This document shows, one piece after another, positions 5,118 through 5,529 of a DNA stretch of 14,554 bases (position 1 is its first letter; each line of letters begins with the position of its first letter). The position numbers were made by a program, and so were the translations under genes. The stretch comes from a virus. Taxonomy: Duplodnaviria; Heunggongvirae; Uroviricota; Caudoviricetes. The stretch lies in IMG/VR virus record IMGVR_UViG_2579778702_000011, one strand, 5' to 3'. The notes below the pieces were generated by a model. That model searched no databases and was not told the origin of the DNA. It saw only the letters and a list, made by a program, of their open reading frames with translations.

Positions 5118-5459
5118 GGTGACAGCCCCTATGTTGAATTCAATGAACTCACCACCAAGGCTTTCCACGACCATATAGGTGGTGAGACGTACAGGGGTGG
5201 AAATACCGGTCAACATAGAACCCGGCCCAACCGAAGTTGGCCCTGCACGCCCCACCATAATTTGGGCGTAACGATGCTCATGACACGAAAAAACCGCATG
5301 AGCGCGGTTGTGCTCTATATTGAATTTCGGGTTTCCACGCCCGGCACCCGCTTTATAAGGTGCAGAGACAGTGTAACGTCCCGAAATTGCAGAATCAATA
5401 TTTGGTCTTGAAATGATCATATAGCTGCTGATATCTTTAGAACTGTTCTTGGATGTTTC

Positions 5460-5485
5460 GGAGCCGTTTTATGCGAAACAGCTCC
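5460..5485 (+). other. stem-loop (GGAGC-cGTTT-tatgcg-AAACa-GCTCC) immediately upstream of the terminator
   Basis: Complementary arms read directly from the sequence. Confidence 0.4.
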
Positions 5486-5504
5486 CCGTTATTGATGTTG
5501 AGTG

Positions 5505-5529
5505 AGCCGGGTTACTCCCGGCTTTTTTT
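5505..5529 (+). terminator. rho-independent terminator, plus-strand orientation (AGCCGGG-ttact-CCCGGCT followed by TTTTTTT)
   Basis: 7-bp GC-rich stem, 5-nt loop and a 7-T run on the + strand only. Its last base coincides with the stop codon (5531..5529) of the minus-strand gene 5529..6278. Confidence 0.65.

Follow-up and report, generated by a model that had tools for sequence, protein, structure and literature searches.

A c4-type antisense-RNA switch and a candidate plus-strand small RNA gene in the early region of an Escherichia coli lambdoid prophage

Introduction

In phage P1, the C4 RNA is cut from a leader transcript by RNase P and represses the antirepressor, and the c4 antisense RNA of the immI region of P1 and P7 is said to control icd-ant (Citron & Schuster 1990; Biere et al. 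1992). The CI RNA of phage P4, which acts with the sites seqA and seqC, has transcription termination upstream of the replication genes as its output. In the ant region of P22 immI, the small antisense RNA sar overlaps the ribosome-binding site of ant. We analyzed positions 5118 to 5529 of a 14,554-nucleotide (nt) sequence of the Caudoviricetes (IMG/VR record IMGVR_UViG_2579778702_000011; the whole sequence is called the window here). This interval lies between two genes of the Rha type. It almost certainly carries an antisense-RNA switch of the c4 type on the minus strand, and it may in addition hold a small RNA gene on the plus strand.

The c4 and c4-a1b1 motifs have been defined (PMC2864571). 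In Gifsy-1 of Salmonella, IsrK terminates leakily, and the silent read-through mRNA is activated in trans by short IsrK (Hershko-Shalev et al. 2016, PMC4825925). The same study demonstrated a promoter at the position that corresponds to the isrK promoter of our locus.

The window is identical (100% over the 501 nt compared) to a lambdoid prophage in the chromosome of E. coli O111:H21 strain 15A (NZ_CP077477.1). We favor the reading that the interval consists of two separate units, a c4-type switch on the minus strand and a promoter-terminator unit on the plus strand, and give it a probability of about 60%.

Results

IsrK and C4 RNAs upstream of the Rha-family gene

The features of the locus are collected in Table 1. 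IsrK and C4 were both matched by their Rfam models over the full model length and above the gathering scores. The first-pass annotation, made from the sequence alone, had described this stretch as gene-poor and lacking a convincing open reading frame (ORF). This description had to be given up, because the stretch is crossed by a 284-amino-acid (aa) ORF, annotated in RefSeq and matched by Pfam Phage_ASH, and contains the two RNAs.

Table 1. Coordinates of the features discussed in the text (window numbering; minus-strand features are given 5' to 3' where the order matters).
Feature	Position	Strand	Details
isrK promoter (inferred)	5370..5398	minus	-35 TTGATT 5398..5393, 17-bp spacer, -10 TACACT 5375..5370, +1 G 5363; read from sequence
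IsrK small RNA	5363..5287	minus	Rfam RF01394, 61.6 bits (gathering score 50), model positions 1-77 of 77
C4-target sites in IsrK	5338..5332; 5323..5315	minus	a1 GUGGAAA (hairpin loop); b1 UCAAUAUAG (single-stranded part)
C4 antisense RNA	5262..5175	minus	Rfam RF01695, 82.4 bits (gathering score 45), model positions 1-87 of 87
C4 recognition elements	5218..5210; 5203..5197	minus	b' CUAUGUUGA; a' UUUCCAC
Leader	5118..5174	minus	C4 targets a2 GUGGAAA 5168..5162 and b2 UCAACAUAG 5137..5129
Rha-family regulatory gene (putative antirepressor), cargo of the cassette	4566..5117	minus	Pfam Phage_pRha 108.5 bits; TIGR02681 102 bits (183-aa form)
Candidate sigma-70 promoter P(+)	5408..5437	plus	-35 TTGAAA 5408..5413, 18-bp spacer, extended -10 TG (5429..5430) n TATCTT (5432..5437); promoter scan
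Candidate RNA of about 85 nt	5444..5529	plus	5' block UGUUCUUGGAUGUU (5444..5457), hairpin 1, U-rich linker, terminator; fold, three alleles
Intrinsic terminator	5504..5529	plus	stem-loop GAGCCGGG-UUACU-CCCGGCUU (5504..5524) and T7 (5523..5529); terminator scan
Rha-like DNA-binding gene in cII position, directly after the cro-like gene	5529..6236	minus	Pfam Phage_pRha 33.9 bits; RefSeq coding sequence WP_001440724.1
LexA-type repressor	7041..7697	plus	

The putative isrK promoter agrees with the consensus at 8 of 12 positions, which is below the threshold of the promoter scan, and its spacing fits the start of the Rfam isrK model at 5363. It is largely conserved among the alleles of the plus-strand unit described below, and variable across all 41 distinct copies of the cassette. 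According to the terminator scan, IsrK has an intrinsic terminator of its own, with a stem at 5309..5292 followed by a U run. A conserved AUG (5258..5256) at the 5' end of C4 is the counterpart of the start of Gifsy-1 orf45. In the leader, b2 runs into the Shine-Dalgarno sequence AGGGG (5130..5126), located 8 nt before the AUG at 5117 of the Rha-family gene. The pair of isrK and C4 was also found in related phages.

Covariation of the C4 contacts

We aligned 93 copies (41 distinct) of the cassette segment from related prophages. Six short elements changed in concert across the copies, with b' of C4 complementary to b1 in IsrK and to b2 in the leader, and a' of C4 complementary to a1 and a2. 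Among the distinct copies, b1 and b' were paired at 97% with compensatory changes at 7 of 9 positions, b' and b2 at 98% (8 of 9 positions; 0.30-0.56 in slid controls), and a1 and a' at 100% (5 of 7 positions). For a' and a2, pairing was 93% with compensatory changes at 2 of 7 positions, a value lowered by a 3-nt indel in one allele, which by eye is also complementary. Pairing dropped to 0.27-0.66 when the partner was slid by 1-3 columns. At least five b specificities were present (CUAUGUUGA, CUUUGGUGA, CGGUAGUC, CCGUGAUGA and CAUGUGCGA), each with matching b1 and b2, and the a elements fell into three specificities.

There is thus little doubt that the minus strand of 5118..5398 encodes a c4-type antisense-RNA switch that acts on the Rha-family antirepressor gene. 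The pairings of C4 with IsrK and with the leader are shown by covariation; the on/off direction and the processing would follow P1 and Gifsy-1 by analogy.

Several modules elsewhere deserve mention in their own right; the sequences are named by our handles. Tandem isrK-C4 modules were found at two or three per prophage, with differing a/b specificities and each before its own Rha or Ash-type ORF (358, 1218 and 2066 in L070; 2576..2764 and 3232..3420 in L002; 906..1094 and 1562..1750 in L006). They resemble arrays of independently addressed antirepressor switches. Two modules look like recombinants: near 2066 in L069, b2 (UCACCAAAG) is mismatched to b' (CUAUGUUGA), and near 550 in L084, b1 (CAAUAUAG) is mismatched to b' (CUUUGGUGA). 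Such mismatched modules might be permanently on or come under the control of another module. In E. coli E01 (L026, 956..3201), an isrK-C4-Rha module with a specificity of its own (b' CCGUGAUGA) was seen in a cryptic prophage of the Qin/Rac type, with ydfC and dicB on its two sides, a position that corresponds to the region of DicF in K-12.

Comparison with described C4-type systems

The locus shares with P1/P7 c4 the order of promoter, a1/b1, C4 with a'/b' loops, a2/b2 over the ribosome-binding site, and antirepressor-type gene, as well as recognition elements that co-vary in concert to give distinct specificities. It differs from P1 c4 in four respects. The cargo is a Rha-family protein and not P1 Ant; there is no separate icd, and the short leader ORF (the orf45 equivalent, with its start at AUG 5258) continues in frame into the Rha ORF; a1 and b1 are carried by a small RNA that has its own terminator (IsrK); and the cassette is located within the early right operon of a lambdoid prophage. 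The P4 CI RNA is likewise an RNA of the C4 clan that is processed from a leader and pairs with sites upstream and downstream of itself, but the downstream target in our locus overlaps a ribosome-binding site.

The IsrK-orf45/STnc1160-AnrP region of Gifsy-1 has IsrK with its own promoter (here inferred) and a leaky terminator, and further downstream a C4-like stable RNA that overlaps a short ORF starting at about nt 106-107 of the transcript, with an antirepressor-like gene next. In Gifsy-1, however, orf45 is a separate 45-codon ORF that ends before anrP and is translationally coupled to it, whereas the frames are fused here. The upstream neighbor in Gifsy-1 is antQ, whereas in the window it is the Rha-like gene plus a 108-bp plus-strand unit, and a divergent small RNA is not described in PMC4825925.

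The Ash reading frame over the cassette

The 284-aa ORF (4566..5420, minus strand), a RefSeq coding sequence, crosses 5118..5420 in frame with the Rha domain. Pfam Phage_ASH (PF10554) matches aa 16-111 of this ORF with 34.7 bits (cut-off 26). The corresponding nucleotides, 5375..5088, are co-extensive with isrK, C4 and the leader. NCBIfam contains no model that matches the 101-aa part of the ORF.

Variable columns were counted by codon position. The cassette gave 31/36/27, against 36/27/76 in the adjacent Rha-coding control from the same loci, and the parts gave 9/12/7 (isrK), 12/11/10 (C4) and 10/13/10 (leader). The residues encoded at the a and b elements change wholesale, and the RNA pairing is kept. 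The annotated start codon, ATG 5420, lies upstream of the isrK +1 (5363) and between the -35 and the -10 of P(+), and translation from it would need to cross an intrinsic terminator. It is probably not the start used on a transcript from the isrK promoter. AUG 5258 is in frame with the Rha ORF, with no intervening stop codon.

In our reading, the constraint on the sequence is that of an RNA, and a leader may be translated from part of it. The Ash domain at 5375..5088 would then essentially be a conceptual translation of the RNA cassette, and the Ash family may largely be so as well.

A strong terminator on the plus strand

Strict terminators were defined by a stem of at least 7 pairs with at least 5 G-C pairs, and at least 6 T in the next 7 positions. 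Only one was found in the 14.5-kb window, both strands taken together, at 5504..5529. In shuffled windows (n = 100) the mean was 0.04 per window, and 3% had any. Its stem has 8 pairs, 6 of them G-C, and a 5-nt loop; a further plus-strand hairpin (hairpin 1, 5460..5485) precedes it. The last T of the T7 run (5529) is the complement of the A in the TGA stop codon (5531..5529) of the upstream Rha-like gene. The plus-strand RNA 5440..5532 folds into hairpin 1, the terminator hairpin and U7 with -30.4 kcal/mol (z = -3.5). These results bear out what the first-pass annotation had seen here, namely two consecutive plus-strand hairpins, the second a textbook terminator whose last T falls into the stop codon of the Rha-like gene, and flanking genes that are all on the minus strand (ORF calls, Pfam and RefSeq agree on the latter).

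The next gene follows directly, with no such terminator, in 13 homologues of the upstream Rha-like gene from other genera, and most of the 26 contexts upstream of isrK modules lack a terminator as well. The terminator therefore belongs to neither neighbor.

An unrelated plus-strand hairpin was seen in phage phiP27 (L004, around 2436..2470). It consists of GGCCGG-N9-CCGGCC followed by TTTCTTATTT and directly adjoins the stop codon of the Rha-like homologue; it precedes an extra Ant gene and not an isrK promoter.

A conserved promoter-terminator unit in a mosaic slot

The promoter scan reported P(+), a candidate promoter with a near-consensus extended -10 and a predicted start at about 5442..5445. 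Its -35 and that of the isrK promoter are 9 bp apart, back-to-back. Together with the terminator it belongs to a mosaic unit (5402..5528, of which the 108 bp at 5421..5528 are intergenic) between the isrK promoter and the stop codon of the Rha-like gene. We found three alleles of this unit, A (in the window), B and C, the latter two about 70% identical to A. It is carried by 223 of 5426 complete E. coli genomes and is also found in viral contigs and gut metagenomes. Wherever it occurs, the slot is the same, between a Rha-like gene and an isrK promoter.

All alleles keep TTGAAA, the 18-bp spacer, TGnTAT(C/T)TT, the 5' block GUUCUUG(G/A)AU (the stretch common to the three is GUUCUUGGAU), a hairpin 1 with differing but complementary arms, the block CGUUGAG(U/C)GAGCCGGG...CCCGGC, and the terminator with T6-T8. 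The inner stems of hairpin 1 are CGUUU/AAACA, ACUUC/GAAGU and CUGC/GCAG in the respective alleles, and the top of the terminator stem shows one compensatory change from T-A to C-G. Positions within the P(+) elements were identical between alleles in 13 of 14 cases, compared with 13-15 of 28 at neighboring positions (Fisher p = 0.003-0.011). Nothing could be learned from running RNAalifold on the MAFFT-aligned alleles, as hairpin 1 cannot be aligned by sequence; folded one by one, the three alleles showed the same architecture (z = -3.5 to -4.7).

Upstream of the isrK -35, the 26 different contexts of related phages mostly contain a co-directional DUF4222 gene or another terminator-less module. 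In L071 (555..1182), L104 and L107, a divergent higB/higA-like pair fills the slot of the unit, with its start adjoining the isrK promoter. The slot therefore accepts independent plus-strand transcription units.

A candidate small RNA of about 85 nt

The conserved promoter upstream of the terminator makes a short plus-strand RNA plausible, and from these sequence features we give the unit a slightly better than even chance of being a transcribed RNA gene. All three alleles have the shape, though only the shape, of an Hfq-type small RNA, that is, an own promoter, a free 5' seed, an internal hairpin, a U-rich stretch and a U-tailed terminator. Rfam yielded no family match for the unit above threshold. 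Between 4900 and 5700 (E <= 5), sroD (24.5 bits, gathering score 50), PrrF, SorX and SorY were listed as terminator-driven sub-threshold chance matches and were discarded. The Pas small RNAs, which are sited near Q and the lysis genes, are unrelated. No paper was found that contains the terminator or the seed sequence of the candidate RNA, and no palindromes were found between the divergent promoters P(+) and isrK.

The first-pass annotation had proposed an antisense RNA against the early operon, with a likeness to lambda oop. Part of the antisense proposal stands, since a strong terminator abuts the stop codon of the gene in cII position and a conserved promoter precedes it; the remaining 300 bp are instead the minus-strand IsrK and C4. 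The comparison with oop also holds in part. Like oop, the candidate RNA is short (77 nt in oop, about 85 nt predicted here), ends in an intrinsic terminator that opposes the early operon at the cII-position gene, and would run against the PR operon from a promoter (here predicted) just downstream of that gene. However, oop overlaps about the last 50 nt of cII, whereas the candidate RNA, ending at about 5529, overlaps the upstream ORF by 1 nt only. The upstream gene is Rha-like and not cII, and the downstream neighbor is the isrK promoter and not the O gene. Homology to oop was absent, with no significant blastn-short match and a global alignment score of 3 (shuffles: -5.7 +/- 4.0, maximum 8.5). 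Judged from the sequence, the unit plausibly is an unannotated candidate small RNA gene with an oop-like geometry, and not a member of the oop family. P22 sar is similar in being a small terminated RNA on the opposite strand beside the control region of an antirepressor gene (here predicted), but the candidate RNA maps outside the isrK transcript, with more than 300 nt between it and the Rha start downstream.

Discussion

Alternative readings

The hairpins at 5460..5524 might act in the minus-strand early mRNA instead, as a 3' stabiliser or processing site behind the Rha-like gene or as part of a factor-dependent attenuator ahead of the isrK promoter, in which case the T run would be incidental and no plus-strand RNA would be made. 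The early operon must indeed read through here to the replication genes, and the minus-strand version folds well (-28.5 kcal/mol, z = -5.0). On that strand it is not an intrinsic terminator, since A7 precedes the hairpin and UCACUCAAC follows it. In all three alleles, the plus-strand RNA is more stable than the minus-strand RNA by 2-7 kcal/mol. Sequence variants speak for both strands, as GGAAC and AGAGC of allele A remain paired only on the minus strand, as G-U, and GAGGU (hairpin 1) and GCUGGG (terminator) keep their pairing only on the plus strand. With T6-8 directly 3' of the G+C stem in every allele and selective conservation of the plus-strand -35 and extended -10, we regard a role in the early mRNA as unlikely. 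The promoter and terminator could also be an evolutionary scar, left functionless when a divergent accessory gene (moron) lost its coding part by deletion. Mosaicism is high in this region, with its 26 upstream contexts, and the higB/higA-like pairs of L071, L104 and L107 occupy just this slot; their promoter region, however, is not homologous to P(+), and no coding remnant is visible. A scar is improbable also in view of the alleles, which at about 70% identity retain the promoter, the 5' block, the complementary arms of hairpin 1 and the terminator.

Two further readings extend into the cassette, and we give little credence to either. The terminator would stop any plus-strand transcript regardless of its origin, including a longer antisense RNA, similar to oop or P22 sar, that starts inside or to the left of the cassette and crosses the isrK 5' end and promoter to 5529. 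The start proposed by the first-pass annotation for such an RNA, TTTCCA-N16-TATAAG at 5332..5359, did not survive closer inspection, as the scan did not report it, its -10 is without the invariant final T, and it lies antisense inside the isrK hairpins, where conservation is explained by isrK. In other phages, the isrK promoter of most isrK-C4 modules is adjoined by a co-directional gene, with no terminator on the plus strand, and the cassette therefore needs none. A longer antisense RNA is very improbable on these grounds. Hardly any more room is left for the view that 5118..5420 primarily encodes protein, namely the N-terminal part (Ash domain) of a 284-aa fusion of Ash and Rha, and that the RNA matches are secondary, in spite of the RefSeq annotation and the Phage_ASH score. 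Such a conserved coding frame had been named in the first-pass annotation as an outcome that would speak against an antisense RNA. The frame is open, but without the third-position bias of the Rha part, so that the resemblance to a coding frame is superficial. Openness as such is weak evidence, because in L071 the Ash frame is open for 507 codons through the antisense strand of the higBA-like pair. The wholesale replacement of amino acids at the a and b elements in favor of RNA pairing, the location of ATG 5420 inside both promoters and upstream of the isrK +1, the terminator in the translated path and the missing NCBIfam match to the 101-aa part argue in the same direction.

Several observations weigh against the two-unit reading that we prefer. 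In the frame of AUG 5117, 40 of the 41 distinct copies are free of stop codons throughout the 283 nt, while both other frames are always interrupted by them. By analogy with Gifsy-1, where the orf45 part is translated, some translation through the cassette may be possible. For the plus-strand unit, viral, genome and metagenome collections contained only three alleles, which makes covariation thin, and the strand-discriminating wobble-pair variants split two against two. Conservation of the unit may partly reflect hitch-hiking between two conserved flanks. Among the 19 translation start regions of the window, the candidate RNA had no trans target beyond its own antisense site, and no operator is shared with the cI-cro intergenic region. 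No published expression data set could be mapped to the unit. EcOnc24, the only positional candidate in the Hfq-CRAC table of Tree et al. 2014 for enterohaemorrhagic E. coli, lies between tail genes, and the Sakai prophages Sp11 and Sp12 do not have the arrangement of the plus-strand unit.

Proposed mechanism

In the two-unit reading, a weak promoter would start IsrK at 5363, and most transcripts would stop at the IsrK terminator. Read-through transcripts would go on to include C4, the leader and the Rha ORF. Pairing of the single-stranded elements a' and b' of C4 with a2 and b2 over the ribosome-binding site of AUG 5117 would turn translation off. As a' and b' would also pair with a1 and b1 in IsrK, free IsrK could titrate C4 or remodel the leader, and translation would be turned on.

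On the plus strand, P(+) would fire and produce the candidate RNA (about 85 nt), made up of a free 5' end, a hairpin, a U-rich linker and a U7 terminator. This RNA could act in cis, being perfectly antisense to the PR read-through transcript between the cII-position gene and the switch. Because P(+) and the isrK -35 are only 9 bp apart and back-to-back, P(+) may also compete with the isrK promoter or collide head-on with PR transcription entering the switch. A cis mechanism of this kind, suggested by the anatomy of the locus alone, is doubtful. Equally tentative is the further suggestion that the unit encodes an undescribed family of prophage small RNAs (about 85 nt, three alleles, about 4% of complete E. 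coli genomes), and that this RNA or its promoter sets the amount of early (PR) read-through or of isrK-promoter activity that arrives at the switch.

Genomic neighborhood

On the minus strand, the order is a cro-like gene (6720..6929), the Rha-like gene in cII position, the studied interval, the Rha-family gene, two small ORFs, an O-like replication gene, and DnaC-like and DnaB-like genes. Between the cro-like and Rha-like genes, a plus-strand ORF of 97 aa (6356..6649) with the strong Shine-Dalgarno sequence AAAGGAGG lies inside the minus-strand early operon. It is labeled hypothetical in RefSeq, has no Pfam match, and overlaps a minus-strand ORF of 117 aa (6377..6730). Terminator-like sites flank it at 6657..6679 (plus strand) and 6352..6337 (minus strand), and it is missing from the relatives L002 and L008.

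The left arm of the prophage carries an insertion, an IS5-like IS903B transposase gene (about 10435..11403, plus strand) with a truncated gene after it, and the prophage may therefore be defective. In L019, a metagenome-assembled contig of Atlantibacter, Rfam MicL was matched at 2742..3051 (minus strand; 60.2 bits, gathering score 56), a few hundred bases from a homologue of the Rha-like gene, and may mark a prophage-chromosome junction there.

Significance

The IsrK-C4 switch is a known kind of element that the first-pass annotation missed. The RefSeq and phage records that we inspected likewise have no RNA feature over the switch and carry labels such as "ash family protein", "hypothetical protein", or N-terminally extended Rha or Ant. 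Once the stretch is recognized as RNA, both the gene model and the probable start codon of the antirepressor are corrected.

If the plus-strand unit is not expressed, the finding comes down to a known cassette and a stray terminator. If the small RNA is real, it would be an unlisted regulator at the control point of the switch in many pathogenic E. coli. Carriers of the unit include Stx2a-converting phages and prophages of O157, O145, O111 and O55 strains. Antirepressors allow prophage induction independent of, or in addition to, RecA-mediated repressor cleavage, and in Shiga-toxin phages the toxin output is set by induction. The plus-strand RNA, if true, would add a third RNA layer to the prophage induction decision, and hence to Shiga-toxin release.

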